From assembly GCA_905178155.1 (NCBI GenBank), contig CAJINV010000009.1, positions 2,395,373 through 2,459,372 of the forward strand: a stretch of 64,000 nt of DNA, given 5' to 3'. Positions within the stretch are counted from its first letter, which is position 1. Every line of letters begins with the position of its first letter. Below, one piece after another: positions 9,884 to 64,000 of this stretch. The translations under genes and the position numbers were made by a program. A model generated the notes under the pieces. The model worked only from the letters and a program-made list of their open reading frames with translations, did not search any database and had not been told where the DNA came from. This DNA is from Amoebophrya sp. A120. Its lineage: Eukaryota; Protista; Dinoflagellata.

Positions 9884-12800
9884 TCACTGCACCTTCCTGG
9901 CTTGCTTCAATCGTTCCTCGAGCAGCTCGTAGTCTCCTTCCAGGTCGGTAATGGTCTTGATATTAAACTGTTTCTGGATACCCAGCATGAGCTCCTTTTC
10001 TCTCCTGTCGACCATGTTCACGGCGATACCCTTCATGCCGAAGCGTCCCGTACGACCGGTTCGGTGCAGGTAAGTTTCCCCGTTGGCTTCTCTATCGCCA
10101 ATCCTGTTGATGTTCAGTGTTTTTCTGGCTTCTCGATACTTTCTTTCTTGCCTTGGTGGCGTCAGTCTCGTTGTTCTCTTTCCTTTGCTATGAAGTTGTA
10201 CCAACTACATATCAACCACCTTTCAACGAGCCCTTTCTTTTCGTATACTCATGTCATCATCATGCAAACAAAATGCTACACTTCATCCAAAAATTGTAAT
10301 ACCTTGATCCCGCAGTCCATATGGTCGGGATTTCGTAGTTCACCACGAGCGTCACCGCCGGCACGTCGATTCCGCGCGCGAGGACGTCGGTAGCCACTAG
10401 AACTTTGGTGATGCCTATCATTTGTAAAAACGTCCCCACACCAGAGTCAAGATGGGGATTCTGCAACACAAACCTTGAAGTTTTGGGAACCACGCATGAC
10501 AAGTTGCAGGCTGTAGTGTAGTACAGGTTAGCAAGGACAGTCGCATGACAAACCCATCTCCTCATCCTGTTTACAGCATTACAAGTGCCAAAACACGATT
10601 GGAAATGCCTCTCATGTAGGTGCGCATTACAAATTTTCCTGTCATTGCAAATCTGCATGACAACTCTGGGGTGGGGACGTTTTTGCTCAGGATAATGCCC
10701 CGCCGAAACTCGTCCATGACTTTGTCGCGGTGTGCGGGATCGATCTTTTCTGGCCCGGTCTGTATCAAATGTAAAAGTGTCTGGGTCTGGAAGGATACAA
10801 CTTGTGATGCTACTTTTGGAATCTACAGAAAAACTGTATTGCATGAACAGCAAAAGAGGTGTGATTTGTGCTACGCGGACAGGGCATTTCTCATGCTGTA
10901 TGAGCGTCAGAAAGCCCTCGCAAAATCTCTGATGCTATGGCATGCATCACAGACCTCATGGATCATGCAAAATCTGCATGACAAACTCCTGCATTCTTCC
11001 AGACCCAGACATTTTTGCAATCCATAGTCTGCTGCGTTCCGCAAATCAGCGACACGGCATACCCGTCCTTTCGCAATCGAACGGAAACTTCGAACCTGTT
11101 AGTAGGGACAATTGTGGGTAGTTTTGGTGCTTTATTATCCTCCCCCGATTTATTTGATCCCTGGTCTATCTTGGCATGTAGAAATTCTCTTCTGTGCGTG
11201 TGTACCTAGCAAGACCAGCACAAAGGAACAAATGGAAATCGAAATAGATGAATAATAATAAACAAAAGCATAAATCAAATATAAATAGATCGTTCTCAGT
11301 ACGCAGTTTTCCTGCTGTTCATGAAGATGATGGACTGCCCAACATTCAAGTGTGCGTATATTTCCTTCAGGGCCTGGTATTTCTCGTCGTTATTTGCACA
11401 CTGCTGGTAAAAGGAGAGAATGGTGTCAATCGCCAAGTCCTTGTTTTGCACCGTGATTTTTGCTGCGTTCGGGACGATGGCCTTCGCGAACTCTCGCACG
11501 TGATCCGGGTATCTGGTGGAGTTGTTTTCTTTTCCCATTGGAGAAGGCCGGCTTCAAAAACGCATTTTCGTGATCTACTTCGGCACGCTAGTAGATCTAG
11601 ACAATGAAACCAACACAAACAAAAATCTCAGGAGAAAACAAATTGAGTAAATACGTGGCGGAGAAGAATAAAACTTGGCAATCTGGTGAGAGCCACTTTC
11701 GGACGGACGCGACGTCGCGGCCCATTTGATTCTCTTGGTCCAACATGACGTCAGCTTCGTCAAGGATGAAAACCTTCACCCGGTCCACGTTCAATATGCG
11801 CTTCTTTGTCACGTCGTAGATCTGTAGTGAATTTTGTGTTTTCGCGAAGTAGCGACTTCTTGCTGACAAACTTGTTCATGCTCACGGGTTTGCCGGAGAA
11901 AAAATAAAAAATCACGTGGTACGACAGCTTTGCTCGGTGACATGTTTTCAACAAAAAATGCGCAACAACGCAAAAATGCGATCTGTACCCGTCCTGGTGT
12001 TCCGACTAGAATGTGTGCTTCGCATTTTCCCTTTTCGATTCTGTCTCCCTGAGGCAGCACCTTGAGGACCTTAATGCCCATGAATTTCCCGAGCTTCATG
12101 ACGACCTCCTCTGTCTGGTTCGCGAGTTCTCGTGTTGGTGCCATCACCATGGCCTGCGGATAGGTGAGCTTGGGATCTATGTTCGCAAGCATTCCCAGTG
12201 AGAAGGTTGCCGTCTTACCGCTTCCATTTGCAGCCTGCCCGATCATGTTCTTCGATTTTGGCGGGCAGATGAGTGGCAGTGCGGCGGCTTGGATCCGTGA
12301 AGGTCGAACGTAGTTCATGCCGTGGATGCCCTCCATTAATTCCCTAGAGTAGTAGAGTTGTCCAGAGTTGTTGAATTCTTTTCCTTTTTTTTCGGTAGCT
12401 TGCTGCGTAGCAGCACGGCGTGAGAGGTTGCACTACGAGGCCATGACGCTCGATCTGCGCAGTTTTCACGTAAGGAGAACCGCCAAAATATTTCATCTAA
12501 TGGAAAAAATGACAATAAGTGTGTCTTTTTACGATGAAGTAAGAAAGTACTTTGTGAGGTTTAGCGAGTCCCAGGATTCCGCAGCGAGCAAGGCCTCGCG
12601 ATAATCAGCGTCAGCCCATTCTACTTGCACTTCGGCAGCCTTTTCGGAGATCAGCCCGCCACGGATGATAGGCGGTCGACCGTCCTCGTCCAGTTGGACT
12701 GGCGGCGCTGGTGCTGGTACTCCGTTCCCGTTGGCTGCAGACGAGGAGGCGCCTTTCTGGCCCACCGGTATTACCTGCACCGGAGGTGCTGCAGCGGGTG

Positions 12801-13029
12801 CGGCTGCTGGTGCCACGGCGGGGGCGACGGCTCCCGGAATTGCTGGTGCCCCGGGCGGTCCGGCCATGACAAGTCCCTGCTGCTTCATCCACTCGGCCCA
12901 CTCCGCAGCGGTGTAGCTCTGACCCTCGGTGGCAGCGGCCGCGTTACCCGTGTTCATGGCGGCAAGCAGCAGGGAGGGATCCACATCCTCTTCCAGGCCC
13001 GGCGGCAAAGGCTGCTCGGCGTCGGTCAT
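9884..13029 (-). CDS. DBP5: DEAD-box RNA helicase DBP5/DDX19 family; exons 13029-12551, 12343-11989, 11821-11655, 11512-11303, 11095-11027, 10757-10695, 10410-10303, 10103-9884 (introner junctions ambiguous within the 5-bp TSD)
   Basis: Q motif PSRIQ, GSGKT, PTRELA, GTPGR, DEAD, SAT, ARGID, YLHRTGRTGRFG; 5 GT-AG introns plus 2 introners whose removal restores QQT|GPE and RRG|ITK. Confidence 0.9.
10416..10694. mobile_element. Introner, family B (TIR AAAAACGTCCCCAC)
   Basis: TAT...ATA, TSD atgcc/atgcc; interrupts DBP5. Confidence 0.9.
10763..11026. mobile_element. Introner, family A (TIR TGTCTGGGTCTGGAA)
   Basis: TAT...ATA, TSD gtctg/gtctg; interrupts DBP5. Confidence 0.9.
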
Positions 13030-15452: not shown

Positions 15453-15594
15453 TATGAAAGTGTCAGAATCGAAATCGACAAAATCGAAAAATTTGTGATG
15501 CATAAAATCGATACCAGTTGGGCCCTCAGTTTCCGAGTGGCGCATGACAAATTTCGGGAGCACCCAAATCCAGTCTGTCATGCTGTTTGGGCAA
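15453..15594. mobile_element. Introner family D, truncated by the assembly gap
   Basis: Starts TATGAAAGTGTCAGAATCGAAATC, closely similar to 23025-23160; N at 15595. Confidence 0.8.
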
Positions 15595-15595
15595 N

Positions 15596-16761
15596 ACAAG
15601 GGATGGGGCACACGCACCGCGCGCGCGAAAAAAATTTTTGTCGGGCCCCCGTGCAAGAAACTGCAGGGGTGAAGGTGTGGCGCGCACGCAAAAAAATTTT
15701 GTGTGGCACCCACGCAGGAAACAAACTGCAAGGCCGCTGACGCGAAGCAGAGAAGGGTGCGGCGTGTGTGCGAAAGATTTCTGTCGGGTACCCGTTCAGG
15801 CAACTGCAAGGGCGCTGGCGCGAAGCAGCGAAGGGTGGAGCGCGCGCCGCGCGCGCGAAAGAAATTTTTATTTGTCGGCCGGCCGCCCATGCAAGAATGA
15901 AAGCGCAAGGGCCTCGGCGCGGCGCAACGCAGTGTGGAACGCGCGCGGCACGCGCGCGACTAAAATTTTTGCCGTGCGCACGTGAAAAAAAGCGCAAAGC
16001 CGTCGGCGCGAAACAACGACGAGGAACGGAGCACGTGCTGCGCGCGGGCGGAGGCAATTTTGAAGGTCCGCGAACGAAGGCGCAGGGCCGTCGGTGCGAA
16101 ACAACGACGGGCAGAGCGTGAGCGGGTGCGGCGCGCGCGCGAAATAAAAAAAGCCGTTGCGACCGCGACGGTGCAGGAATTTGAAGCGCAGCGCCGTCGG
16201 CGCAAAGAAAGAGGGGACGCAGCGCGCGCTGCTCGTGTGCGGAGCAAGGTCTTTGCTCTGCAAGGCCCGGGACTACATGCGAGTAGAAAAAGCCGGCTCT
16301 TGCTGTCGGCCATGCAAACCGCACAGCCGAACCGGCTACAAAGGGACCCACAGGCAGGGGCACGCGCGCAACGCGAAAAGTTCTTTGCTTTTTTGCTAAC
16401 CATTGGCGACTGGGTCGCGCGCAAAAGTAGAAGCTGTCGTGTTCTGTTCAGTTTCAAAGACGCAAACACCGAACAAAAGAAATGCCGCCAGCACCGCGCC
16501 GCCGGGAGCCAATCAAGAGGAGAGCTGCTGCGCGCCTGCGCGCGTTTTGTATGTAAGGACGGAGCGAAGCCTGGGCTGATGCTGCAGCAAGGCTGGCGCC
16601 ACACGGGCGGGGCAGGCGGGCGAAGGGCAGGACCAAAAAGTCTTCCGCCCCCGGTGCGCAGGCGGGCCGGGGGCTCTTGGTGGCAACGGTCAGCGCGCAC
16701 GTAGTTTGGCCCACGCTCATCCCTTCATCTTGCACGGGCGCCAGCGCTCGTCTTGGTCTAC
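15596..16761 (+). mobile_element. GC-rich repetitive element, possibly Helitron-like, 5' end in the gap
   Basis: Degenerate subrepeats (gcgcgcgaaaaaaatttt, gggccgtcggcgcgaaacaacgacg); terminal hairpin acgggcg-ccag-cgctcgt followed by cttggtctac. Confidence 0.4.
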
Positions 16762-16899
16762 TATTTCTTTCTATGCTAATATGAGCATGAAGCTCGACGC
16801 CAGTTCATAATCTAACTTTTATGGGGGGGAATCTCCTTGAGGGAGAATCTCCTTAGGCCGTCGGTAGAATTTCCTTGAGATTTTTTTTTTTCCAACATA

Positions 16900-16980
16900 A
16901 AGTCTCTGTCATGCAAAAAAAATCTATGATGCTGTTCCTGCAAAAAAGTTACACTTACACAGTTTTTTTCTTCTTGGATA
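16900..16980. mobile_element. Right end of a family G introner (left end not found)
   Basis: ...aaagttacacttacacagttttttt...cttggATA matches the right ends of 26090-26298 and 30887-31105. Confidence 0.65.
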
Positions 16981-19900
16981 GCCCCGACCACGGCCGACGC
17001 CACTGCGTTCTGCTTCTGCCCGCCTTCCGGCCGCTTGAAATATAAAAGCTGCAACGCTTATGAATTGCAAAAGTATCGCACTCGTAAAAAAGCATGACAA
17101 ATTATTCCCTCAGCATGAGAAGTAAAGTTTGTAATGCGGATTTACCTTGAGAAAAATGCATGATTGCAATTACTACGACTACGATACTTTTGCACAGGAT
17201 AACGCTAGCTGGTGCACCAAAAGCCGGACGATGAACTCGACGGGGCCCAAAATCGGACTATGGGTTGCAGAAGTGTCTGGGTCTGCAAGATTGCGGCCAG
17301 GCTACTTGTCAAGAATATTTTGAATGACCCATGATCTCTGTGATGCATGCCCTAGCATCACAGATTTTTAGAGGCCATTGCGATGCCTCTACAGCCTGAG
17401 AAATGCCCTCTCCGCGTAGCACGAACTGGGGTCCTCTTGCTGCTGGTCATGCATTGCAAATTTTTTTAGCATCCAGAGGCAGCATCACAAGTTTAGAATC
17501 TTCCAGACCCAGACTTTTTTGCATTTGATACGGACAGATCTTCGTCAACACAAAGAAAACGTAAGGAAACACATAATCCACCACGGTGCCATATGGCGCT
17601 CTCAAGCGTCACATTCGCAACTGTTACATGGATTTGTAATGCAAGAACAACAACAGTGAGAGTGGCAACAGTGATTGCAGCTTTCGCATCACAGCTTTTC
17701 CACAGATCATCATGCTGTTTTGCCATGCTAAGCACCTTGATCAAGTGGAGGCTAATGGCAATTTTGCATCACGAATTCATGTAACGTTTGAGAATGTAAC
17801 ATCAGTTGAGAACGCCATATGCCAAGCACCACCTCCGCGACTGTACGAACGGAGGCGAACAGGCTCCGGGCCCCGACGGTTTTCACGTAGTCCATGAAGC
17901 CCTTTGTCTTTCGGGAGATAAAGTCGGTGACGCGGCTTATGCTGTGCAAAAGCATCGTACTAGTACTAGACCATTACGCCGGCGTCCAGGACGCCGGCGA
18001 TAGGTGGCCTAGTAAATCTAAACGCAACTACCAAGCAAACTAACAACAAAGAGGAAAAAACTTGGAGAGCGTTGGGCTGAAGACTCGTCGAAAGAGTCCC
18101 GCTCTTGGGAATCTGCTAGCGGAAACGCGGCCACTATTCGAAGCCCTTCGGGCCGCGGTCTTAGCATGACAAAACGGGCTCCGCTTGCTACTGAAGCCCT
18201 TCACTAGTAGCGGCCCACATTAGTGGGCGCGCGCGCCTTCGCTTCCGGGGCTTCTTCCTAACTAGCTCGCCCCCGCCCGGCCCGGCCGTCGGCCCTGGCC
18301 CGATCCCCCGCTTTTGGGCTTCCTACCCTGATGTCTAGAGAAGGCCTCTCCCCCAGATAAGTAGGTCCCCGGACCCAGATGTCTCCCCGGATATCTCCCC
18401 AGATATTTCCCGCATCCCCAGATATCTCCCCAGATATGTCCCCAGATACCTCCCCAGATATCTCCCCAGATAGATCCCCAGATAGATCCCCAGATATATC
18501 CCCAGATATATCCCCAGATATATCCCCAGATATATCCCCAGATATATCCCCAGATATGCCCCCAGATATATCCCCAGATATCTCCCCAGATATATCCCCA
18601 GATACGGGAAGGGCCGCCCTCTTCATTTTGCATGCCGAGCTTCATCGCCCCCCCTACCCCCCCAAACGGGGCCGGTCTTTGGGGGTAGCCAGAATAGACC
18701 TGCTAAAAACCGGCCGGACCGCCCGCGGGCGTGGAGGACACACCGGCAGGATGTTTGTTCCCCGCGATGCCTTTTTTTTTCTTACGCGCGCTCCCTTAGA
18801 AGCTTCCTTTAAGGGCTCCCTTAAGGGAAGTTTCTAAATTCCCTTTTTTCTAGAATTCATTTTCTAAGGGCGCCCCTATAATCTATAAGGGCGAAAAATC
18901 CGAGTAAAAATTCTATAGTGTTATTTTATAAATCGCATGACAAATTGCCTCAGCATGAGAACCAAAATTTGTATATGCAGATTTAACTTCAGAAAGAAAT
19001 TTGTAACGCATGAATGCGATTAGTACAACGAGTACGATATTACTTTTGCACAGGATACGGCTTGTGGCGACACGAAACTTTTCGAGCGCGTCGTTGAAGT
19101 TTCGCTGCATGTGGCCAATGGGATTGCGAAACCATGAGAATGGGCCGCGGCTCTTGACGACAATTTCTCCACTTCCAGTAGTCCGCGATATCCTGTGTAA
19201 AAACGTCCCCACACCAGAGTCAAGATGGGGAATCTGCTAGACAAATCAGCCAGCTTTGCCTTTGCTTGTTTGGCATGACAAGTTTGTCCGCGTAGTGTGA
19301 TCCTGTTTAGCTAGTTAAGAAGCATCACAGATCTAGCATAGAATGCTGATTCTAGCATCACAAGTTCCAAAACACGAACAGAAAACGCTCTGCATAGGGC
19401 TCCGCATGAGAAACTTTTTTGGCATGCGGAATTGCATGACAACTATGGCGTGGGGACGTTTTTACTCAGAATACACGACGACCCATCTTCATCGTCTCCG
19501 GCCCGGTGCTTCAACAGTATGGAAGCGCCAGGTTATTTGAAATCGACAGAGTTGAAATAAGTAATTTGTCATGCATAAAATGGATACCAGTTGGAAGACC
19601 AAGCTCCAAGCGGAGCATGACAAATTTTCGGAGCACCGAAATCCAATTTGTCATGCTGTTTGGGCACAGATGAAGAGTGCTTTTGTCATGCTCCTTTAGC
19701 AGCTCGATCCCAAAGCCTAAATAGGCTCACAATCTGCCTCACTTGCCATCCCGGCAAGACAGGCACTTCATGCCTTGCATTTTATGCATGACAAACCATT
19801 TCAACTTTGACGATTTCAATCCTGTTCCTGACACTTCCATAAACAGTTCGGCCTCCGTACTCGCGATGACGCCGTGTTCGGTCCCGTGCCCCTCTTCCCG

Positions 19901-22900
19901 AGCGGCTTTTATTGCGAGGAAAAATCCCCCCTCCCCATATTGAAAAGGTATGTTTCCGAAAATTTGCGCTGCTGATTTGTGGCCACAGATCAGGTTTGTC
20001 TTGCAAGAAGACAAGTGCAGAGGCATCCGCCCAATTGTGGAAGCGATTTGGCATGCTGTTGGTCCTAGAGGGTAGCCGTTTGCATCAATGCTGAGCAACT
20101 AGACCTGCGCGCTCCCACCTAGGCTGCCAGACATCTGGCCGCAGTGCCTTACTGCAAGACAGGTCGGATTTGTGTACGCAAATCAGCATCAGAAATTTCC
20201 ATTTTGATATGGGGAGGGGGGATTTTGATTTTTCATTTTGATAGCTTTGCTTGCAGCTCCTGCGATCGTCTCTGCGATCGCACTAGCATAACGGCGCGGC
20301 GTGGACTTGGACGTGGTCCCTTCAGCGGCATCGGATGTTCTATGCATTGCAAAAGTATCGTACTCGTATAAATGCATTACAAATTCCCTCAGCATGAGAA
20401 ATGAAATTTGTCATGCGGATTTACCTTAGGAAAAAAATTTGTATTGCATGACTGCAATTACTACGAGTACGACACTTTTGCACAGGATATGTTCCCCTTC
20501 CGAACAACGCACTGATCCTGCCCCAAGCACTTGTCCAGGTCTTCACTATCCTCGATATGCAATACAAATTTCCTGTACATGTACAAAATGCATCACAAAT
20601 GTCACCAACAACTTGGAGCATGCCACTTGCCATGCTGAATAGAATTTGAGGAAAGTTTTGTCATGCAGAAATCGCATTTGTACATGTACAGGAAATTTAC
20701 TGTGGATACTCGACTTGAGCCATGCGAGTGTCTGATGAGGCAGAGTCATCAATACGCTGCCGAGCAACCTCCGGAGCTTTTCTGCTCCAGACTTCATGAA
20801 CAATTTAAATTTCTGAGCCACAGTGGGCAAGTGGTCATAGAGTACGCGTTGTATGGATGTGTCAGAGTTGAAATCGACAAAGTTGAAATAATTTGTCATG
20901 CATAAAATGGATGCCAGTTGGAACCCAGTTTCCAAGTGGCGCATGACAAATTTGGGTAGAGCCGAAATCCAGTTTGTCATGCTGTTTAGGCAAAGAAGAG
21001 CGATTTTCTCATGCTACTTCAGCAGCTCGAGCTGTAACCGCAAACAGGCTTACAATCGGCCTCACTGGCCTGCTCTGCAACACACGTGCCTCGGGTCATG
21101 CATTTTATGCATTACAGATTACCAGCCATGCTCCGGCTAACGCCGGAGCGCAAGGCTGTTGTGCTGGGGTTTGACTATTTGCGGATCGGGCCGCGACACA
21201 AAAGCTTTCTTTGGGCACAGCGTGAAGGACCGAGGAAACTTTGAGCGCCATTTTGCGCGAGGTCAACTCGCAGGGCCTCCTGCGCGCTTCCCGCGCCTTT
21301 AGGCGCTATGCGCAGGGGGCAGCTGCAGTAAACCTTGCGGGCGAAGAGAAAGAGATGCCGCCCCGGCGTAGGTGCGTGCCGAAAGAATCAGACAGAGGCC
21401 GGCGCTGCTCTTTGTTTATCACCACCCCGCACCCGCCCACCTGATTCCCCGGGGAAATAAAACTGTCGGCGCGAGAGGGTGGCGCAAGACGGTGGCGCGA
21501 GAGGGTGGCGCGAGAGGGTTCGGGCTTTTGCATGAAAGGGCCGCAAAAAAATAAGCCCTGTGCCGGGCGGATTCGGGTTTTTCTACCCCTCTCGCAGACC
21601 CTCTTTTTCACCTCTTCCGAGAGGTGTTGCTAATAATCCGGCTATACTCGCCGGTGGAGGTCTACAAAGGTGGCCGAGAGGTGGCCCAGAGGGTGCGCGA
21701 GAGGTCTCCCCTTATTCGCGCAACCTCTCGGCACCTCTGCCCACCTCTCGCTTGCCCTCTTTTTTACCTCTCGGCCACCTCCGTGCCGCTTAGCGGCCCT
21801 AAAGGGTGACCGGTTCGGCGGGCTATACTCGCGCCCCCTCTCGGCCACCCTCTCGAATTACCTCCCGCGCCACCTCTCCACCTCTGTCGACCTCTTTTTT
21901 ACCTCTTTTGACCTCTTTTTGACCTCCCTGCCACCTCTCGTTTACCCTCTCTAGACCAATATTTTCGCATGAATATAATAGATAGTAATTTCAACTTTGA
22001 CGATTTCAAACCTGACGCTTCCATACGTTGCAGCAGTTCGGTAATCTTGTCTTGGAATTGGACACCGAGGACCACCACCACGGTTTCCACCAAATCGTTG
22101 GTCACCCGTCCAGTTAGCCAAGGGGGCAGGTGAAAGAGATGCAACACGTTGAGCAAGAGGTCGGAAATATCAAATGTAAAAATGTCTGGGTCTGGAAGAA
22201 TACGCAACTTGTAATGCAGCTTTTCCATGAAGACCCATGAGATCTGGAATGCAGGACCTAGCATGACAGATTCTGTGAGATCTATGTATATCATGTTGCT
22301 TATTCTGCATGAGAAATTCCCTCTCACCCGGGTCAAAAATGGACGGCTTTTGGTACTCTTGCAACAGAGATTCCTGTATGATTCAGATGTAGCATGACAA
22401 GTTGCTATGTTCCAGACCCAGACATTTTTGCAATTCATAGGAAACGATCCCCGCCAATTTGAACAGCATGGCATAGAACACCGCGCTGGAAAGTATGGAA
22501 GCGTCAGGTCTAAAATCGTCAAAGTTGAAATAATTTGTAATGCATAAAATGCGATACAAAAAGTGACTCTATTGCAGAGGACCCACGGGAGGCAGATTAT
22601 AGTCCTGGCAAGGGTCAAAAGTTGGACTGCTAAGTAGCATGACAGAAGGCAGCTCTTTTGCCCTAAACCGCATGACAGACTCTTTTCCAGGACCGGGAAA
22701 ATTTGTCATGCACCGACTACAAACTGTAGGTCTAACTGCCATCCGTTTTATGCATGACAAACTACTTCAACTTTGACGATTTCAAACCTGACACATCCAT
22801 AGAAAACAGGCGGGCCATATGCGTAGACAGCCACCCGAGCACATCCAAACCCGTTTCCCACGTCTTGTCAATCGCTTTCCTCAACGTGGATTCCTCCCCG

Positions 22901-29409: not shown

Positions 29410-29646
29410 TATGAGTGCGCACAACTCCCCCTCGTCCCCCTCATCTTCTGTCATACAAAACATCAAATCCACCCTTTGATGCCTCTTGGCACCTCTTGCA
29501 TGACAGGTTCTGGTAGATCAAACAGCACTACAATACTGGGTAAACTTGTCATGGAAAACCCGCATTCTTGCCGACGCTCGGGCTCGTATTGCTGCTCATG
29601 TGTCAATACAAATGAGGGCCGGGAGGATGAGTTGTGCACTTTCATA
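29410..29646. mobile_element. Introner family J (TIR GTGCACAACTCCCC), downstream of a stop codon (probable 3' UTR)
   Basis: TAT...ATA, TSD ttgtc. Confidence 0.85.
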
Positions 29647-29779
29647 TTGTCCTTTTCTTCTTGAAGTAGCACTAGTAAGCAAAGACGAAGCTGCCAACAT
29701 GTCCGGAGATGACCAGCTTCATAAGTGGTTTGTTTGTTTGTTGAGGATAGAGTCAGCCCATGATCTCAAAAAATATTTT

Positions 29780-39571: not shown

Positions 39572-39844
39572 CGTCGGAAATGGTTTTTAGCTTCAGGACC
39601 AGATGAACCAAGTTTAGGTATTAATCGAGAACAAATTGGTACAAATATGTTTGAGGTAAAACCACTCAAAAGAGTAAACGAAATGTAAACGAAAACGATA
39701 AGGATAACGATAACGAACGTGAAAATATTAGAATATAGAAATACGATCAGTGTACTTACATGAGGAATATCAAAATCTATATCACTGGTACAGAGGACCA
39801 CGCCTGGCGTCCTTCTTACGATGCCTGGCTTTGTTGTTGTTCGG

Positions 39845-39928
39845 AGATGTGGAAGAAGAGCAGTCCAGCTTTTGAGCACCACATGAAGATTCATTGCTTT
39901 ACTTTCGCCATTCATCTGCTGAAGATCT
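39845..39928. repeat. ~85-bp dispersed duplicate, copy 2
   Basis: Matches 37808-37889. Confidence 0.85.
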
Positions 39929-46400: not shown

Positions 46401-49400
46401 CCATCGATGCCCAGGGAATCTCGTACCGCCACAAATCATCACAGAGCCCAAACCTGCACTGCATCGCCGCCCCGCCGTACATGTACATGTACTGCCGTCG
46501 CACGTTATCTGGATCGGAGGCCCGGGTGTAGATGACCAGTTGCGACGCGTGGGCGTACCGGGCAGTGGGTGTCCCAACCATGTTGGTACTGGTGTCCGAC
46601 TGCGACGTGTCAAATTTCATGAACTGCCACTGGTGCCGCACTATGCAGCGCAAAAGTGTCGCACTCGTATAAATGCATTACAAAAAATTTTCTCAGCATG
46701 AAAGATAAAATTTGTATATGCGGATTTACCTTGAGAAAGAGATTTGTAATGCAAGACTTGCATTTATACGAATACGATACTTGTTTTGCAGTTCATACGC
46801 ACCGTGTCGTACCGCCAGAGTTCGTCGGTCGCGAGCTCCAAACAGGACCGCAGCTCCCGCCGCCCGTGCCCCTTCTCCGGGTCCGCCGGCTGGGGAAAAC
46901 TTGGCGGGTCCTCGAAGGCGCCCTTGTTTATCCATTGCAAAAGCATCGCATTCGTATTTAAATGCCAGTCTTGCATGACAGATGTACTTGCTATACCTGA
47001 ATCTGCATGACAAGTTGCATGTTTTCTTCTGCAAAAATTTGCCATGCTATTTCTACCAGTACGATACTCTTGCAATTCATATTGTCCATGAATTTGCAGT
47101 TGTGCCAGATCAGCTCCGACTGCACCCCAACCTTGTTCGGATCTGTGTCCTGCACTATCCCCGGTAGATACGCGGAATTCAACATCTCTTCCCCGCCCGG
47201 CTGGTGGTACCAGCTAGGGCGGTCCGGGTACTTCGGAAACGTGTAGTCGTGCACGTAGGTCCGGCCGCCGAAAACCAGTAGCTGCGTTCGGTCAAAGGGA
47301 ACCTCCGTCCCCGTCACGTCGTGGGTGCGCATGCACATTCTTCTAGATTTGCAGCACGACGGCGGGCAGGTCATGTGCGTGTTTTCCAACAGCGGCTCAA
47401 ACTCGCCGTCATCGTTGTCCGTGAAAAACGCCGTACGGAAAAAGTAATTCCCGCGGACATCCTGCCGCGCGAAGTACGCATCCACACCGCCCAGGCAGGT
47501 CAGGTTGTAATATCACAGGAAAAAGTGTTGTTAACGTCAACGGAATTCGAATTTGTGATGCAGTAATGCATCACAAAGCGAAAACGTGCCCAAGTTTGTC
47601 ATGCATAGCATGCATACTAGGCAAAATCTGTCATGCATATCTGCAACCTAGGAAAACCGTTAACGTTAACACTTTTTTGTTGGATATGTAATGGCACACG
47701 TTCATGTCGTCGAGACACAGCTCCGGCGACTGTAGAGGTTCGCCGGCGCAAAGTATCAAAAGTGAAAATGTCTGGGTCTGGAAACTTGTGATGCTGGGTG
47801 GCGTCTCATGATGAGGCTACAGATGCTGGCTTAGCATGACAAGTTTCTGAGCTCCTAGGTGTTGCCTATTCTGCATGACAAACTGCGCTTCTGCATCACA
47901 GAAAAGCAGAGCTCTTGGGTAACGTGCATGACAGAATTTGAATTAAGAGGCATGCCAGACAAGCATGACAAACATGAATTCTTCCAGACACAGACATTTT
48001 TACAGTTGATACAAAGATTCAAGTACGCTTCGTAGTGGGACCAGGTTCGGTACCAGTATAACAGTGCGCAACCCCCCCTGCCCCTCATTTGCCATGCAAA
48101 ATCCCAAATCCAGCTGCTGCCTTCCTTCTCCTTGTAGCATTCTTTGCGTGACAAATTCTGGAAGCCCAAATAACAGTACTACAATCGGCGCATGAACTTG
48201 CCATGCTCAGCCTCCACGCGTCTTGATGTTTCTATTGCTGTTCATGCCATACAAATGGGCGGGAGGGCAAGTTGTGCACTGTCGTAACCAGATCATGCTG
48301 TGCATAAACCGCCCTGACGGGGCGATCGGAATGAACCAACAGGAGGTCCCGGTCTTGCAGTCATTGACGTAGCGCCAGTCTTGTTGCGGGTAGTGGGTCA
48401 CGGACCAAAGTGACGTCTCCTTCACGACCGGCTTGAGCAACCTATTGGATCCTCAAGCGTCACACTCTCAACTGCGTCATGAATTAGTCATGCAAAACTA
48501 CCATCATCATCCACACGATCACGCTGCTTCGCATGACAAATTTGCGAAGGCCTAAACTACAGCCGAAATTCGTAATGCTACAGGTGCAGCTTCGCCCCTT
48601 ACCCTTTTACTTTTGCCATTCTTGCATTACAAATTCGCGTAACAGTTGAGAATGTAACTGGTTTGAGAACGGCATACAACCCAGTCACCGGATCGTACTT
48701 TTCCAACCACGTGTAGTTTGCCTCGCCCAATTGCAGCTCGTACCTGTCATTTGCAAAAGTTGTATCGCACCTAATCGCATTGATGCATGACAAATCTAGT
48801 CTCCTACTTGATGAATCTGCATGACAAGTCCCATTTTTCTTCTTGAAAAAGTTAAAGTTTGTCATGCGATTTATACATGAAATGCGATACTGCTTCTGCA
48901 ATGCATAGTACCCGTTCGCGACCGATTTGATTCCGTCCTGCCAGGCGATCCGGCGGGTGAGAATGAAGTAATTCAGCTTGTAGTCCGTGATGTGGCTTGG
49001 GTATTCATACACCGTGTGTTTCACGGTCGCGCAGTATGCAATACAAATTTCTCGTACATGTGCAAAGTGCATCACAAATTTCACCAATTTGGGGTGTAAC
49101 ACTTGTCATGCTAAACTGGGATCGAAGCCCATTTTTCTTTTTGTCATGCAGTGCCTGCGTTTGTACCTGTACCGGAAATTTACTGTGGATACGCAACCCT
49201 TCATCTTGATTTTTTTCTCCTGACACACCGGAATCAGTTGGTGCTGGGTCAAAATGCCGGGGGAAATGTCCATCATGTAGGCAATATCCCACGAAAAACG
49301 TGTTACAGTGACACACTTCTTGCTGATGTAACTTCAGCATCACAAGTTTTCTCCGCATGACAGAGAAAACTTGCAATGCAAAGATCATAAGGGAAAACTG

Positions 49401-51629: not shown

Positions 51630-52149
51630 CTTGCGACGCTTACCTTCGAGATGAGGACGTATTGGTATTGAACTCCTGCTAGAAGTTCTCGTCTTCATCT
51701 TTACGTCCGTCGCTGCTTTTTCACTCTCCTCTCTTCTCCTCCGCATGTTCTCCTTTCTCCAACGCGAAAATATCCTCGGGCCGCACGTGCCGGAACTTAT
51801 TCCCTCGCGCAACTCAATCATGACGCTGCAGCCCGTTTTCGTGCGGCAAGCGTCACAGGCACGCTGCTATTCAAGCGTGGTTCGCTGGCTGTGTGCCTCT
51901 TCTACCATCCGAAGGGGCACCGGAGGAAACAGACGAAGGGACGAGGTAGAACAACGAAAACGGTCTGTCCCCCCGCATCTTCAATAACTAAATCACAAAC
52001 ACAATCTTGAGTTGGCGGAGCAAATACAATATTAATTCTTGTACAGGATGCATTCTTGTTCTTGGAAAAACCCTCCGTCCTCTCCGAACCAGCCGGCTGA
52101 TCATGAGTATGTGTGCGATATTAATTGATCCAGGAGGTTACTGCACAGT

Positions 52150-55100
52150 TACTCGTTGCTCACAGGAGCTTTTCTCACCACCGAGATATATTGACTTGCG
52201 TCTTTTTCTTTTCCGCCCACGCCACCCTCCGGTAAGGTTGCCTGCGCTCTATTTCAATGAATTGATCATCCTCTATCTTTCAGCGTTCTCCTGGCACCTC
52301 TCTCACTCTAACGAACAAGGGCAGAGAGACCGATAGCTCATGCGACTGAAGAGTCTGAGTTTCAATTTCAAACTCAAACGCAGCCAGCGGACGTAGGAAA
52401 ATAAATGACACACGCTCCGGGGCATAGATACATGGGCGCCCTCCCAGGCAATGGGCCCGGCACACATCGATCGGAGTGAGTGTCGGCGGCAGCAAACTGA
52501 GCGAAGCTATTCATTTGCGCCGGCAACCGGCGCTCGCTCGGTGCACGCCCGGGTGCGCGGCGGGCCAGGCGGAGCTGCGTGCGCGACTAGTCTTGCGCCT
52601 GGGCTGGCCTGCTTCAGTAAAGGCCTACCCTGTCGCCGCGGCGGCGCAGCACTTCAATGCACACAGAGGCCGCCCACCGTCCGTCCGTCGGTCCGTCCCA
52701 CCAATGCAAAGGCTGCAACCACGAAAGAAGGGCAACCCCGATCGGAGTAGGTCTGTGCCTGCGCGCACCACGCGCGGCCCTTTCCATCACCGGGCCCCCA
52801 AGGTGCCCGGCAGTGATCAGGCGGCCAAGGCGCCAAGAAAAGGCAACCCCCACCCGCCCCCCGCCAAAGATTGGCACGCCGCCCGGGCAATCATCGCGAG
52901 GACCTCGCTCGGTGTCTGCGCTGGTTTTCTTTTTTATTGGCCACGTTGTCGCATGTGATGGACGCGGCGGGCCCCGGGCGACTGGCTGCAATTCGTTGGA
53001 GGCGACGCCCACGCACTGGAACAAGCGCACGCCCGGGCGGGTTGATCTCTGCGAGAGTGCCCGCCCACCAGACACGTGCTGCACAATGATGCCGCAAGAA
53101 GGGGCGCCCTGAATGCAACGCAGGCACCATCTTCGGGAAGATGGCAGGTTCTCCCTACACTGACGCCGCGTCTTCTTTGGCGTTGTCATTGCTCATCCTC
53201 AACGTCTTGCGAGCCAACAAGCTGAGTGCGTTTCCCTATGTATAATTTTCAAGGCCGTGCTGGCAATTGTGTTCCTTTGCACTGGTTTATCGCTGCTCAG
53301 AGGTGCTTTTCGTACAAACAAGTGGATCTATTTAAGTAGTTCCTATCTACTGTTCCCTCCATATCCCTCCAGGAAACTATCCTGCGCTCTATTTCAACTG
53401 ATCAGGACGCGCAACGCCCTCTTTCATTCAATCTTGCTCCCCAGCGATAGCTCTCTCTGACACACAAGAACAGAACGACCAAAACCAGCCGGCCTCTACG
53501 ACCGCGTTGGGAACTCAACAAGGACAAACAACAGACATAAGAAAGTGGCCAGGTGCGCGCCGAGGCATACATGGGCGCCCAGGCGGTAGGCCCGGCGCGC
53601 ACGGCCACACGCACCAGACACGAAGTGGCAACAAGAATAGCTCATAGCCGTAACTGCGCCACCGGCGGCCCACACCTGGACCGACACAGAGGAGTGGCGG
53701 AGCGTGGCCGCGAGCCAGCCGACTCCTGCCACAGCAGTCTGCGTCCCCATACAGAACGTCGCCCGTGGTCGCGGCGGCGCGCCGACCATATGCCCCCAAA
53801 GGCCGACCAGCCAGCGCGCCGCCGGCCGGCGACAAACAAAGGTAGAGACCGCCGGCGGGCCCAAGCGAGCGACTACGGCACGCAGGCAGCGCAGGAGGGC
53901 CATCCGGTTGCAGGGTAACAGCCCGGGGGCCCCGAAATCGGCGCGCGCCCGCGGTCCCGCGCGCGCCGGTGCGGCGGCAAACAGCCAGGCCAACGCAACG
54001 CCGGCCGCCCACCCGGGATGGAAGAATCTGCGCGCGGCCGCCCCCCCATGGCTACCATTTCGAATTAACAAAATCGAAACCGCGCGGGCCGCTCCTCCGT
54101 TGCGGTTGGGCTCGGCGTTTCAGGCGCAACGCGCGGCCCGGCTCCCCCGACCTCACTGGCACAGGCAGGGGCGCGACACCAGGCAGCCGGCCACCTGTTG
54201 GGGGGGGGGGGCGCGCAGGCTGCTCCCTGCCACAGGCACCACAATGCGCCCCCCCATGTGTATCACCGGGACCATGCCCAAACGGGGACCAGCTCAAAGC
54301 CGGAGAGAGCGCGGCGCACAAACGCGCGAGGCGCGCCGGCCACAGCCCCGGGCGGCCCAGTATGAGAGTACCGCAAAGCCCCTCTATCCCTGCGCGCCAG
54401 GCAGGCCGCATCTCCACACACCTAGCAAAAGCCGTCTTCTGTGTCTATGTTCGCATCGAGTTCCTATCTTGGTAAATGGCGCGGACGCCAGCACCACTCA
54501 TAGTCATCTTCGCGCCCGCACACAAATATCGCTCCGTCCTCGAGGGACCACTGCTCTCAGAATGCCCTGGCTCTACCCCCTCCTCCTGTTCTCTCCTCAT
54601 AGATAGATATACCCTCTGCTCCAGGTAGATACAGAGAGATACGAAGTGGTCGCCTGCTTCATTCCGGGCAGATGCTCTCTCTGAAGAACAGGCGCTAACA
54701 AAACCACCGACCGAGCTTGTGCGAAGCGGCTTGGACTTCAAGCACAGGAGTCTACGGAAAAAAGAAAATGAGAATCACCAGCCGCCGGCGCACGGAGGCA
54801 CACACGGATGCCAACCCAGGCGGCCCGGCAAAGGCCCGCCGTGGTCCTGGAAGGTATGCACCAGAAGCGGGCTGGCGGCAACAACTCCATAAGCCTTCCT
54901 GCGCCAGTGACGACCAGCCCAGCCACACACAGACCCACGGCCGACACATGGGACGAAGCTCTGTGGTCAACTTCCCAGCCCAATCCTATCTCCCCGGGCG
55001 GCGCCAGAATACTACAAAAGTACCTACGTACCGGCACCAACGAAGGGAGGAACACCGCCGCCCCAATGGGGCGCTATCTATCTAACCAACAGCCGGCGGC

Positions 55101-55800
55101 CCCAGAAGAGAACAGCTACGCCCGGGCGCCTCTTTCGATCGTTAGCCCGCTGCGACGGCAGGCAACAAAAGAAGGCGCCGGCGATATCTGCCAGCAAATT
55201 AATACAACGGCCACGAGGCACATCGGGCGCCCGGCTTTGATCAATGGCGCGCGTTGTTGCTGTGTCGGCGCACGATTCGCGCATTGCCGCGCCCGCGCAT
55301 GAACGGCGAGGCGGGAAACTGCGCAGCCCAGTCGCGGCAGGGCTCGGCGATTGGGCGACTCAGATGCGCGGCAGGTAGTGGCGCATCTTGCGGCCCCTGC
55401 TACCACCTACCACAGACAATCGGATCAGCAGGGCGCGAGCGAGCGCCTGGGCTAGCTGCCCTCTCCCAAACGAGCGAGGCCGCGCCCCAATGCAAGCGGG
55501 ATCAATGTGAAACCGCGAGGCGCACCGGGCAAACGTCTCCTGGAAGCCACAACTGCCAGACGGGTCCTCGAATAGGACAACTCTGGGCCACCTTGGTCTA
55601 TGTTCGCGTCGCGTCTTATTTTATTTGGATGGCGCCGCCGATCTTCTCATCTACAAACGAACAAACGTCGTTCCCTGGCCCCCTGCTCTCAGAATGCCGT
55701 GGCTCTGCCCCCTCCTGTGCTTTCCTCATATAATCTCCACTCAGAGCTGATACAAACAAAGTTATCGCCTTCGTCACTCCTTCCTTCTGGTCTTTTTCTC
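52150..55800. repeat. Degenerate tandem array with a ~1.13-1.15 kb period (pyrimidine-rich block + GC-rich block), ~3 units
   Basis: cctgcgctctatttcaa at ~52241 and ~53381; atacatgggcgccc at ~52428 and ~53567; gttcctatct at ~53340 and ~54460; tctatgttcgc and ctgctctcagaatgcc at ~54444/54551 and ~55597/55683. Confidence 0.55.
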
Positions 55801-56211
55801 TAGCAGAAATGAAAAGTAAAGGCGATCAAATTATGAAGGGGAGCAAGATCTGCCATTCGCATTCCCGACCTGTTCCTTCATTCGGCGAGAACTTGACCTT
55901 TTCTTTCACCCTCACTCTCCGTAACTAATCTTCTCCCATCTATCTCTCGCTGCTGAACAAAGTCATTGACAACGTACCATCTTGACGAGGACCAAACAGT
56001 TCCAGTAACCTCCTTTAGATCCAAAGCACCTGCTTAGGCCGGAAACGAAACACTAATTCAAGTTCAACATCTTACACCATCGAAGAAAGAGTGCACTACC
56101 TACGGTAGAGGTTTCAAAATCAGGTTCGGCAATAAGCAAAGCAAAATGAAATGGAAATGGTCGCTCAACTCATGATACATTCCCTGCTCCTGCCAGATGA
56201 CTCACAAAATC

Positions 56212-59200
56212 TTACATCAAGCCCACACCAAACTTCCCCATGGTCCAGCTGTGTAGATCGTGCCAAAACAGCGCCAGAAACCGATCGCTTAAACTGCTGG
56301 AATTCTTCATCGCAAATTTGTCTGCGTCCGACAAATGGACACCGAAATTGTTCTTGGAATGAAAGTCGATTCGTTCAAAGTTCGGGATCGGGTCGGTGGT
56401 CAGGTAGCTCTGTATGCAATACAAATTTTCCGTACATGTACAAGAATCACGAATTTATACCAATTTGAAGCGTAAAACTTGTCATGCTAGAGTAGGGTCG
56501 AAGCCTATTTTTGTCATGCAGAGACCGCATGTGTACGTGTACGGGAAATTTACTCTGGATACTCTGGAAAATCATCTTCCCGACGTAGTCCTCGTTCACG
56601 TTCACACTGGGTTATGCAACACAAATTTTCCGCACAAAAACATGTACTACGAAACGCATCGCAAGGTCTTGCAACAACTTAGATGAAGAGCACACGACAA
56701 CTTGTCATGCTGCATAGGCTTGAAGAAAAGTTTTGCCATGTAGAAACTGCATATAATTATAACGCGTTCAACTGTTGAATCAAAAAAAGTTTTCAAATTT
56801 TTTTTCAAGTGTAGAAGTGTGTTGCCGCGCAACCTCGACCGGCCTTGGAATGTTTTGCCTGAAAAGAGTCGTGCTCTTTTTCTGTCGCCCCTGCCGTCTC
56901 GGTTTCTAGTTGCCGCTTGCGTGCTCATTGCGAGTACGCGCCGGCCATCGCAGCGCAAGGGCCAAAAAAATCGCCTGTCGGGAAGTGGCTTCGGGGGGCA
57001 ACAGCGCAAGAGCTCCGCAAAAGCCCTCCAGCAAGGCATGCCACGACCCCAGCTGGATGCTGTCTGACACGAGGCGAGTGGCGCCGCCGCAGCCGTGTGG
57101 CCTTAGAAGCCCAGACCCCGCTCGAAGGCATGGCTCTGCTCCCTTCCTATTAGACCCGGATCATTTGAGCTCCTGCCCTGGCACGGGGGCAGAGCCTGGA
57201 TCGCAGCGGGATGGGAAGACAAGCCGTCAGAGGCATTGCCAAATTACCAGACGCGAAGCCGACCATAAGACTGCCGTCACCCGCGCCGCGGATAGAGGAG
57301 TGCGTCGAAACATGGCGCAAAAGCCTTGCTGCCCCACTGGCGGCGGAGGAGCCAGGATGGGGATCCACAAGGCCAGCCCCGGCATGCCTGTTGCCCTGAG
57401 GCAATTCGACCTGCATTGCTTTGGATTTGTGCTGCTTCGGGACCTCCCCGGGGGACCTCCCCGAGGGACCTCCTAAATCCGACCAAAAGTGGAATGGTTC
57501 GGAAAATCTTCGCCCGATGGTATGAGACCTCCTCGTAGAGGTCCCTTGAGGACCTCCCTTGGGGACCTCCGGGAACGCCTCGAAAGGCCAGACTTCGGCT
57601 CTCACCTTTCCGCAGGACAAGGTCAGCGCCCCCCACTCCTGGAGCAAAGCGAACGGCCAACCCCGGAGCCCCGACCTGAAGGCGGGCGCACGGGTTTCTG
57701 CCAACACTGTGGCGGACTTGTAGGGCCCAAGCTGCGCATGGTGGAAACGCCACGCAGCCTGCCGCCCGAAAATAACAGTCGCGAAATCTGAGCGAAGGGC
57801 ACACAAGCTTCGCCCAAAAACGCCATCCCGCTGGCCAGCGCCTGTTCCTTCATTGCAACAATGGCCGCGCGCCATGAGGTTCACTAAGAAAACCAACATG
57901 TCTTCCGCGACAGGCGAGCTTCAGAGGCCGTGGCAAATTGGTGGACAAGACAAGACGGGCGTCTAGCTAGTCTCCGATATGATAGCTTTCCGCGCCCGCT
58001 TCACCGTCATGCTTCCGGAGCCGCGCAAATTGCCCCAAAGGCTACGCGACTCCGTGCGGCGGCCTTTTTACCCGGGCCCGTGCAGCACAACTGTGCGACC
58101 GGTCGAGGGCTCGACTCGGCGCCCGACTCTAGCATAAGTCAGTTTGAATGCTCAAGATCTGCGCGCTGTGTGCGGATTCTTTGCTCGCCGATTCTGGTGG
58201 GCTTCTGCGCGCGCGCTTTCCGATACTTAAAGAAAAATTTGAAAATATTTTTTGATTTAACAGTTGATCGCGTTATAATAATCAGCCGTTGTGCGTTGTG
58301 TACGGAAAATTTCTGTGGATATGGGCCACCGTTTCACGTTCAACACGTAGGTTCTCGGGACCAAGTCCGTCGTTCTGGGACAGAGCTTCAACATCTCCTT
58401 CTGGACGCCGTGAATCGCGGTTGCGTCCTCTCGCAGAAACGACGGATCCGTGTTGGCGATCTCCTGGTCCAATGTTTTCGAAAACATCGCCCGGGCCTTC
58501 CCGAGCATGGAGGTTTTGCTGAGCACCAACTGCTATCAACTGCAAATATGTCTGGGTCTGGAAGAGTTGGGGCTTGTCATGCACATTTTGCATGACCCGC
58601 GAGGTCTGTGATGCTGGTGCTAGCATGACAGAATTTTTGAAAGCTTCTTGATGCTAATTACACATGAGAAATGCCCTCTCTGCGTGCCAAGAGCTGACTC
58701 CTCTTGCTGCTCATGCAATACAGACATTTTTAGAATCCGCAGACAGCATTACAAGTTCCACTCTTCCAGACCCAGACATTTTTGCATTTGATAACTGCTT
58801 CTGGTTTCGCATGTTGTACACGGCGTCCCACAGGACCTGCCCGGCGTATCGCAAGAACAAACTGCTTCACTTTGAACTTGTGATGCATAGAACGGAACGC
58901 AAATGTGTTTGTCTTGCTGCACATGCAAGACATTGGTTTTTTAGCTGTGTTTTCCCTTAGGAAGCACGCATGCCAAGTTTTCTTTGTCATGTGCAACAAA
59001 CTTGTGATGCAGATCTTGCAAACTCGTCACAGTGAAACATTTTTTTTTGTGGGATACGGCGGTCGTGTCCTCTAAAGTGACGTGCAAATACGGGTTGGGT
59101 TTGTTCGCGAAACTGTCTCCAAATCCGGTCGTGTCCGAAATCTCCAAATCTGCCAACTTCAACCAGGGATGCGGCGGCTCCTTCGCCAAATCCTTCGGCA

Positions 59201-61925: not shown

Positions 61926-64000
61926 TTAGATTCCACAGTACTCGTAAACGTGACTCCAAGTCAAATCGGCTTGTTCAGTCGCTTCATCCTGCAACATGAA
62001 AAGCGAGTACGGCTGGTACATTACTGTGGTCAGAATGAAGAGAAAGTAAAAGCAAGTAGTAACTTGCATAAGCGTGAAAACCTCCGGAAACAACCGCCAC
62101 GAAGCCCCTGCTACTTGCTTCGGCTCGGAATCCGGTAAAAAAATTCCCACGAACCTCGGCAACAACACCTCCGCTTGCTCGTCATTAAACACCGCAAATT
62201 TCCAAGTAATAACAGCCCACTCGACGATGTCGTTTACGAAGAAAATAATCGAGGCAACCTATCGTGCGGAAAAATCCCCCCTCCCCCTATTCAAAAGAAA
62301 ATTTCTGATGCGCGGTTTGTGTAGTAGTACTTACACAAGTCGGTTAGTACCACTAGAATACTAAGGGATCCAGCTGCGGCTTCGATTGCAGGCAGTTGCC
62401 TTCCCCCCACGCCAGACTTGGGACGACAGTCTGACAGATTCCGACTCTCTCCCTTTCTAGCATGACGCATTGAAGTAGATTTGTTTTTGTATTCACATAT
62501 CATGTTAAAGCTACACAAATCTCGCTTTGCATACGGGGAGGGGTGATTTTTCATTTTGATGCAATCAGTCCGAACATAATTTCCTCGTTCGTTTGCGGAA
62601 ACCCGGGGAACAGTGACACGTTGTTCGCCAGTCCAATGAGAGGGACGAAAATCAGCGTCAACGACGTCATCATCCGGCAGTGCGCGCGAATCTGGTACCG
62701 TTTGAAGTTTTCCTGGCGGTAAAAATCAATGCAGTGTTTGAAAGCCTTCAGCTCTGCCGCAGAAACCGGCTCCACTGCTTCTGTTTTTGCTACTTTGTCT
62801 TCCTGCCCAAGTAAAAACTTCACTAGCGTCCGGGTCGTCGCCGCTGCCTGGCGCGCGCCAGTAGAGACGTCCTGCCGGAGACTGCTGGTCTTCAACACCG
62901 TGTGGCTTTTCGACCCGACCGGCATGCTCAGGGCCTTCTCGACTGACATTACAGCTACGCCGGCAGAATTGCAGGTGCCGGCTAGCTATCGACTGCACAC
63001 ATGTCTGATTCTGGAAATTTGCAACGCTTGTCATGCCCGTTTTCCATACTTAGCCCACGAGGTGTAGCAGAATTTAGGACCTAGTATGACAGATTTTGTG
63101 AGATAGAGATCCCACGCATGCCTATCCTGCACGAGAAACTCCCTCTGAACTTGGTCAAAAGTGGACAACTTTTGGTAGGTAATCACGCAACACAACACCT
63201 GTAAGCTTTTGCACGATCCCGACTTAGCATCAAAGATTGCAGCTTTCCAGACTCCGACACATTTGCAATACGTACTAGCACCCTACTGTTTTCGCAGCTG
63301 CGCGCTTCGCTTCCGCTTGTTCGTCCGTCCATTGGCGTATTAACTTGCTTCTCCTCTGCAGCTTCTTTCGCAAAAACAGTTTGCTTCTCCGTTTCCATTG
63401 CGAGCAAGTTGGGAAAAAAGGCTGCTTCTTCATTGCCGCGCTCGGATCCGCCGGCGTTCGGCGGCTCTTCTGGTACGACTTGCACTGCTCCGTAAGAGAC
63501 ATCTGCCACCTCTTGGTTGTACAAATCCCGAAATACTTTTTTCGGTACGTTTCGGATCTTCAGCCGGATGTTCGAAAAGTGCAGGGCCAAAGTTTTCTTG
63601 ATGCCGCTAGTACCCGAGTCCTGCTCTTTCTGTTGTCCGTCGTCAGCAGCACCAGCGCCACTATTCCTATTTTGCTCCTCTGCAAGTTGCTGCTCGAAGT
63701 CAATCTCCTCGTCAAAAGCGATGGAAAAGCGTCGATTAACAGAACTTATGCGTTGCAGGTTGTAACAAACTTTAGTAACCCAGCGCCAACTCTGCGGCAC
63801 GTGCTCTAGATCGTCGAAGTCGCAAATTTTCAACGCGAACACCAAAATCGCTTCACTTTGCCGCAAAGCGAAGTGCCAAACGTGGTAAGTCAGGTCCCGG
63901 AACAATACAAAAGCGATGGTCGCAGGAGATAAAACCAGGAAAACCCCGCGGCCCATTCCGAACCGCATCGAGTCGAACATGTAGTGGAGGACGCAGGTAA
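61926..64000 (-). CDS. Hypothetical multi-pass membrane protein, 3' part; 2 introners; 5' end outside the window
   Basis: ORF pieces 63183-63980, 62551-62949 and 61926-62192 are separated only by introners; FGLI|ASIIFF join is in frame; several hydrophobic segments. Confidence 0.7.
62260..62561. mobile_element. Introner family I (variant right end ATG)
   Basis: TAT...ATG, TSD caacc/caatc. Confidence 0.8.
62987..63274. mobile_element. Introner family A (variant right end GTA)
   Basis: TAT...GTA, TSD ctagc. Confidence 0.85.

Follow-up and report, generated by a model that had tools for sequence, protein, structure and literature searches.

A 12-bp word repeated across introner families of Amoebophrya sp. 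A120 and its possible role in their mobilisation

We analysed a 64,000-nucleotide stretch of Amoebophrya sp. A120 (assembly GCA_905178155.1, contig CAJINV010000009.1, positions 2,395,373 to 2,459,372, forward strand; hereafter the window), which is rich in introners, elements with terminal inverted repeats (TIRs) that are removed from messenger RNA (mRNA). The introner families share a repeated 12-bp word, GCATBACARRTT. It is probably (we would put it at about 0.6) a site in double-stranded DNA for a single mobilising protein that serves all of them, comparable to the subterminal repeats of Ac or En/Spm. This reading is based on the enrichment, conservation and spacing of the word, its indifference to strand, the TAT ends and 5-bp duplication common to the families, and the removal of the elements in transcript-like contigs. 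An initial annotation of the window had noted GCAT[GCT]ACA in both orientations inside every introner family despite unrelated TIRs. It had suggested a site for a shared factor, internal RNA stems, or the feature that turns a miniature inverted-repeat transposable element (MITE) into an intron. The observation was borne out in part and the interpretation is partly supported, with the transposition side favoured among its options.

Enrichment of the motif in introners

Introners were located with a motif-blind end detector, which called elements by TAT..ATA ends combined with a TIR and with a 5-bp direct repeat in which four or more bases had to match. This gave 67 elements containing 197 of the 214 strict matches to GCAT[GCT]ACA in the window; five further elements and two broken halves were located via leftover motif matches, and are thus not motif-blind. 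The 72 elements were sorted by end sequence and BLAST into ten introner families (A to J) and one 1.5-kb element. Families C and D fall in one cluster, so the number of independent families is perhaps below ten.

The 214 strict matches (112 on the plus strand and 102 on the minus strand; none before 10416) compare with 7.83 +/- 2.69 expected, and a maximum of 16, in 100 shuffles of the window. Introner elements, which cover 21,318 bp, hold 213 of them, and the other 42,682 bp hold one, in a GT-AG intron at 45341. There is no strict match in the 1.5-kb element and a single one in the three nested inserts together, in agreement with the reported scarcity of the motif outside introners. The eight reported letters are real, but the true word is longer: A or G follows at position 9 in 211/214 strict matches and at position 10 in 198/214, and the bases flanking the matches widened the consensus to the 12-bp GCATBACARRTT. 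In reverse it may resemble Sox-Oct, RBFOX or ApiAP2 sites, a likeness on which none of our arguments depends. This word is present in all ten TIR families, at 3-7 copies in nearly all introners, whereas three of the 71 window introners (19910, 48057 and 62260) have only degenerate copies. With a weight matrix at score 12, which was trained on the window itself and is therefore circular here, site density is 12.8 per kb inside elements versus 0.05 outside. The example given in the initial annotation, the family C introner below, has one plus and two minus strict copies and one degenerate copy.

50747-50895, no strand given: family C introner (about 150 bp)
41611-41787, plus strand: motif array of family A copy 41533 (host gene on the minus strand; skipped in contigs)
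45296-45416, minus strand: GT-AG intron with a 33-bp direct motif pair (45341, 45374), including the only strict match outside introners

The GT-AG intron at 45296-45416 is possibly a decayed introner. Another GT-AG intron, 46203-46354, has weak motif sites and TIR-like ends, and both introns may be introners turned canonical.

We also scanned one other assembly with the family B end plus the motif and fetched 156 loci. The second set consists of 58 of the 66 long loci (493,961 bp; eight were omitted as overlaps), and family B was ascertained on the motif in it. It contains 320 elements, of which 314 are shorter than 420 bp. Since these are at most 95% identical to window copies (median 80%), they are other copies, mostly of the same families; small extra families K, M, N and O also occur. 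A motif site at score 10 or more is found in 312 of the 314 simple elements. The annotated elements (97,494 bp) contain 1,153 strict matches and the other 396,467 bp contain 115; in one stretch inspected by eye, several outside matches lie within further TAT..ATA elements and the rest could not be assigned. The detector made 12 calls in 204 kb of reversed sequence, a control that is not clean because reversed elements keep TIR and duplication. No orthologous insertion was found between window and second assembly among the 33 rows listed. The claim of both orientations in every family holds as far as the motif occurs in all ten, but copies with sites in a single orientation predominate in families A (24/25 in the second assembly) and K (5/5).

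Spacing of the sites

Among site-richest family representatives, 13 of the 28 same-orientation pairs lie 30-33 bp apart, in nine of ten families (null 2.1 pairs and 1.9 families), and none of 3000 nulls reaches nine families in any 4-bp window. Enrichment and spacing, both suggested as checks in the initial annotation, gave positive results. The array of copy 41533 is an example, with six plus-strand sites at element positions 48, 79, 132, 165, 214 and 244 (steps 31, 53, 33, 49 and 30). In the second assembly such pairs were seen in 12 of 14 families, including B (101/120, null 28.7), C (34/46, null 6.6), A (25/25, null 7.0), J (22/25, null 4.0), H (15/32, null 2.3), E (8/13, null 0.6) and G (7/14, null 0.6).

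Outward-pointing sites cluster at 29-31, 38-41, 49-53, 60-61, 69-73 and 80-84 bp from the element end, and are in register with it at 10.5 bp (R 0.40, p 0.0016; 37 modes, 14 families). This register is only suggestive, because p runs from 0.0004 to 0.11 over five subsets and end layouts are perhaps common by descent.

Conservation of the motif core

With motif sites and 16 terminal bases masked, local alignment between families gave z of at most 2.7 in all 45 pairs (60 shuffles each), and the spacers have no evident common sequence between families. Within-family controls mostly exceeded z 5; family H reached only 0.7-5.7 against itself, which leaves room for very old kinship. Over 18 subfamilies, divergence from the majority is 0.02-0.045 at the first three motif bases, 0.166 at other internal positions and 0.20 at base 5 of the motif. 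The core thus diverges 4-8 times less than other internal positions, and is lower in 18/18 subfamilies, so neutral decay is rejected. A core conserved across families that do not align when masked supports a site for one shared factor, and speaks against a motif decaying neutrally in descendants of one ancestor, one of two outcomes that the initial annotation had named as fatal to its idea.

If the motif is needed for copying, its changes should lie on tip branches and not be passed on. In trees of 13 subfamilies (249 copies), core changes number 150 on tips and 14 on inner branches, compared with 2,147 and 698 in other internal columns (odds ratio 3.5, p 4e-7; 3.4 in an alignment-only version). 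The core-to-other change ratio is 0.39 on tips versus 0.11 on inner branches, with the same direction in 12/13 subfamilies. The TAT ends behave alike, with 19 tip and 0 inner changes, and base 5 has no tip/inner effect. Any purifying selection enriches young changes at tips. If the motif is free after insertion, the implied post-insertion decay is 2.1%; mismatched duplications give 1.6-1.8%, a lower bound. The branch test and the decay figures fit a role in mobility only, leaving room for some host selection.

Element ends and target duplications

TAT occupies positions 1-3 in 141-142 of 144 window ends and C or G position 4 in 130. Positions 11-14 are A-rich (A in 106-128 of 144 ends), with families E, F and G departing at 11-12. 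An exact 5-bp duplication flanks 328 of 392 elements in both assemblies, with a detector conditioned on a match of at least 4/5, and shows no sequence preference. An exact 6-bp repeat was found at none of the 392 called ends; the detector was aimed at 5, and the removal of element plus 5 nt described below agrees with it. Integrase-like enzymes are reported to produce 4-6 bp duplications. The families do differ in TIR, as the initial annotation had stated, but the ends are not wholly unrelated, since TAT, C/G at position 4, A-rich 11-14 and the 5-bp duplication are common to them.

Position 4 is C in 0.48 and G in 0.43 of ends, and position 5 is G in 0.25. In families B, C, D and K the terminal motif score is highest at position 4, adjoining TAT. 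Complementarity between the two ends is 0.96-0.98 at positions 1-3, 0.48-0.70 at 4-9 and 0.90-0.96 at 11-14, a layout of short stem, loose zone and then long stem.

Strand and removal from transcripts

Strand calls from restored open frames were available for 258 elements (123 of 390 junctions were unassigned, and four window calls are probably wrong). Relative to the host gene, 555 sites are sense and 615 antisense. Sense sites are missing from 20 of the 258 elements, and antisense sites from 26. Family A, with sites nearly all one way, has 14 sense and 10 antisense insertions. We found neither a strand bias to the mRNA nor compensatory change between paired copies.

Contigs from runs X1 and X4, which come from one sample and whose RNA nature is a guess, skip the element plus exactly 5 nt at 12/12 element joints among the 15 joints listed (27 more are unlisted). 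One skip spans 1,094 nt over an element with a nested insert, and the same contigs skip two GT-AG introns. The cut falls somewhere within the 5-bp repeat, and the elements are removed from transcript-like contigs without GT-AG, as introners are. Removal extends to copy 41010, with its single site and an altered terminal base, and to copy 41533, whose six sites all lie on the strand opposite to the mRNA. Together with the concentration of motif changes on tip branches, these copies leave unsupported the idea that the motif is what turns a MITE into an intron; no motif-free copy was seen spliced, so the idea is not refuted either. All 24 family A copies with a strand call would add 1-7 stops if retained. 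Raw RNA runs X9 and X10 gave just 26 and 172 partial reads, on repeats, and are uninformative. The DNA-like run X5 reads across exon-element borders, and none of the 15 joints listed (of 231) skips an element, which gives DNA-level excision no support and no disproof.

Proposed mechanism and alternative explanations

The shared protein could be a transposase DNA-binding domain or a TnpA-like helper, required for copying to new sites. Its copies would bind about three helical turns apart on one DNA face, in register with the end, and would assemble the two element ends, after which a DDE-type enzyme may cut at TAT and integrate with a 5-bp stagger. Since nothing but TAT, the A-rich 11-14 and the motif array would be read, TIR and filler would be free to differ among families. 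For splicing, the terminal hairpin would matter more than the motif. A variant that we think unlikely has one protein reading the phased array, mobilising the introners and also measuring the ends for RNA removal. The protein would stay bound, or be host-domesticated, and the element plus 5 nt would be cut from nascent RNA without splice-site sequence and without U1.

Several observations weigh against a mobilising protein bound at a phased array. With random representatives the 30-33 bp pitch occurs in a median of 6/10 families, and in the second assembly it is absent from families F (0/12) and N (0/3). Other direct spacings have no 10.5-bp phase (cos -0.06), which makes this a fixed pitch of about three helical turns and not general phasing. 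Inward sites have no end register (p 0.63), and that of outward sites is weaker in the window only (p 0.11) and in families of five or more (p 0.06). The families could owe their common spacing to an ancestor so old that alignment no longer reveals it. Tip core changes are still only 0.34-0.39 of those at other sites, which leaves room for host-level selection. Taking the branch-test sites from majority sequences makes the inner-branch counts slightly too low, and decay is not clearly greater in copies whose duplications are imperfect (core 0.042 vs 0.035). No transposase frame was seen in 51.5-58.4 kb of the window, and no element above 1.1 kb among the 320 in 494 kb of the second assembly. 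The 1.5-kb element shares its ends and duplication with the introners yet lacks the motif. According to the part of Farhat 2021 covered here, no transposase was found in A120, and the authors argue that transposases are not the general means of mobilisation (PMC7789003).

An RNA role, in which the motif is a splicing-protein site or opposite copies pair into internal stems, is largely contradicted and in our view quite improbable. In predicted folds of 86 elements, 140 of 348 sites do pair in register with an opposite site, mostly under the long TIR, and the paired fraction is 0.76 for motif cores versus 0.59 for other internal bases. However, none of 40 family A sites pairs with an opposite site, and base 5 shows no covariation between opposite copies (match 0.33 vs 0.35 expected; mirror pairs 39/110, chance 35%), so internal stems fail as a general rule. 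The elements with no sense or no antisense site, the removal of copy 41533 and the stops that family A copies would add are further points against an RNA role. A host chromatin or transcription factor site on double-stranded DNA, marking the element and recruiting co-transcriptional removal machinery for introns without splice sites, is an alternative that we regard as unlikely. Strand indifference and spacing fit it equally well, nearly all simple second-assembly elements (312/314) keep at least one site, tip core changes are below neutral, one GT-AG intron retains the 33-bp pair, and the motif-free 1.5-kb TAT..ATA element lies in another intron and needs no removal itself. U1 small nuclear RNA was also not found in Amoebophrya, according to the part of Farhat 2021 covered (PMC7789003). 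On the other hand, the tip/inner contrast of the motif matches that of the TAT ends, one-site copy 41010 and a copy with a 0.9-kb insert are removed, and the core is no better kept in open-frame copies than in unassigned ones (0.036 vs 0.034, with crude strand calls). It is hardly credible that motif and 32-bp spacing are functionless, decaying remains of an ancestral element with a tandem 32-bp unit. Common TAT ends and 5-bp duplication, the clustering of C and D and the limited power of the alignment test are in its favour, but each of the 18 subfamilies has a conserved core, with base 5 free to drift, the spacers share no sequence and the inner-branch ratio is 0.11. Neutral decay of the motif is contradicted; common ancestry itself is a separate matter.

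Introner families and other features of the window

The introners are given below by family, with one copy leading each line; copies marked as skipped are those removed in the X1/X4 contigs.

10416-10694, plus strand: family A introner (about 280 bp; sites nearly all in one orientation, with 30-33 bp pairs); others 19189-19473, 32335-32613 (opposite way round), 34695-34981, 41533-41815 and 42500-42784 (41533 and 42500 skipped)
10763-11026, no strand given: family B introner (about 260 bp); others 17259, 22168, 24976, 26412, 32741, 33659, 34057, 34374, 35339, 43658, 45618, 47754, 50071, 51234, 58534, 59481 and 62987-63274 (43658 and 45618 skipped)
Family C, other than 50747-50895: 17059, 17938-19057 (nested insert), 20341, 30683, 32131, 33159, 35043, 41865, 43967-45055 (nested insert), 46642, 46929 and 48745 (41865, 43967, 46642 and 46929 skipped)
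20556-20708: family D introner (a relative of C, about 152 bp; the TIR starts with TAT, followed by motif copies at positions 4 and 35); others 31196, 49035, 50375, 56413 and 56613-58321 (contains the 1.5-kb element)
43283-43499: family E introner; others 29410, 29859-30359, 41010-41271 (one site), 48057 and 49546 (41010 and 43283 skipped)
17592-17819: family F introner (without a 30-33 bp direct pair); others 29879-30120 (nested in 29859) and 48443
19518-19841: family G introner (about 308 bp); others 20852-22025 (nested insert), 22494, 23025, 24627, 25706, 31512 and 42082 (skipped); broken left half 15453-15594
26090-26298: family H introner; others 30887, 40574 (skipped), 49285 and 58847; broken right half about 16903-16972
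38453-38614: family I introner; other 47511-47686
19910-20243: family J introner (about 320 bp); others 23427, 35647 and 62260-62561
56758-58277: 1.5-kb element inside a family D introner, with TAT..ATA ends and a 5-bp duplication but lacking any strict motif

The 10416 copy lies within a DEAD-box helicase gene, whose upstream exon matches PF00270. Pfam searches gave nothing above cut-off on 29 exon pieces beside family A copies and no match in the two longest frames of the 1.5-kb element, of which no copy was found among the fetched second-assembly loci. One viral-contig match proved to be a chance match in a phage contig.

Nested insertions are also present. The family F introner 29879-30120 is inserted 20 bp inside the TIR of the family E introner 29859-30359. 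A GC-rich insert of about 0.8-0.9 kb occurs at 21123-21987 and 44094-45013 in the window and at L023 778-1568 and L123 1-69 in the second assembly; each of the four copies seen sits in an introner, two of family G, one of family C and one that was assigned to family A by eye, and the distance to a motif edge is always about 5 nt or less. It is possible that this insert targets introners. A different 0.94-kb insert with a tandem repeat (17970-18913), in a family C introner, ends a few bases before a motif. Between the broken G and H halves at 15453-16972 lie one N (15596) and a GC-rich repeat of about 1.3 kb, which is likely an assembly gap. A 4-kb GC-rich region at 51800-56000, with no introners or recognisable genes, splits a gene lying on either side, and a 92-bp inverted repeat at 1439-1623 (74% complementary) is unrelated to the TAT families.

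Comparison with known systems

The comparisons in this section cover parts of the cited papers. Introners themselves are already known. The elements resemble published Amoebophrya A120 introners (PMC7789003, PMC12130899) in having TAT, seven less conserved bases and AAA, inverted and direct repeats, non-canonical ends, a size of about 150-330 bp, many families and a dense occurrence within genes; the TAT inverted repeat, the direct repeat at the borders and the occurrence in repeated families were all found here. Direct repeats are 3-5 nt in Farhat 2021 (PMC7789003), whereas the elements of this study have 5 throughout, with an intron that equals the element plus 5. The string 'gcat' does not occur in the main and supplement text of Farhat 2021, figures and logos not covered (PMC7789003), nor 'gcatgaca' in 12 of 14 supplements of Gozashti 2025 (PMC12130899). 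We thus found no mention of the motif in the portion of the introner literature covered, and subscription papers, Roy 2023 and figures might hold it. One TIR family of A120 with integrase-like frames, known from Gozashti 2025 (PMC12130899), is a candidate source of the mobilising enzyme.

Maize Ac/Ds carries AAACGG hexamers as subterminal binding repeats (PMC3260210), TNPA of En/Spm has its own 12-bp motif (PMC2613891), and Lemi1 binds subterminal motifs of Emigrant, an Arabidopsis MITE (PMC1636448). As in these systems, a short, conserved, non-palindromic word is repeated inside the ends of non-autonomous TIR elements. There the word is bound by an element-encoded protein and is cis-acting for mobility, a role proposed here from sequence. 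Sequence, ends and duplication length differ, introners are removed from mRNA, and one word runs over at least ten families with differing TIRs at a fixed 30-33 bp pitch. IS3EU elements (PMC12730594) also have long TIRs and ends beginning TAY, and the TAY..RTA pattern is seen in introners. However, they have TAYGG..CCRTA and 6-bp duplications, in contrast to 5 bp and no conserved GG in introners; membership was rejected on the lack of any exact 6-bp repeat in 392 elements and of TAYGG (position 5 G 0.25). Euglenid nonconventional introns (PMC11282704) are alike in a TIR stem joining the ends, non-canonical junctions, border repeats and a probable MITE origin, but differ in terminal consensus, and no internal motif array is described for them in the part covered.

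Conclusions

In conclusion, our analysis adds to the known introners the 30-33 bp pitch across families that do not align, more tentatively the distances of outward sites from the ends, and the concentration of motif changes on tip branches. How the tens of thousands of Amoebophrya introners move and are spliced are both open questions in the part of Farhat 2021 covered (PMC7789003). That the families have one motif in common, at a fixed pitch, means that one protein likely serves them all, and the motif is a ready bait for catching it. The motif also provides a means of annotating many 'singleton' introns, and its mutation a clean way to separate mobility from splicing. If the same protein also took part in RNA removal, the motif would be the address label of a DNA-guided intron-removal pathway.

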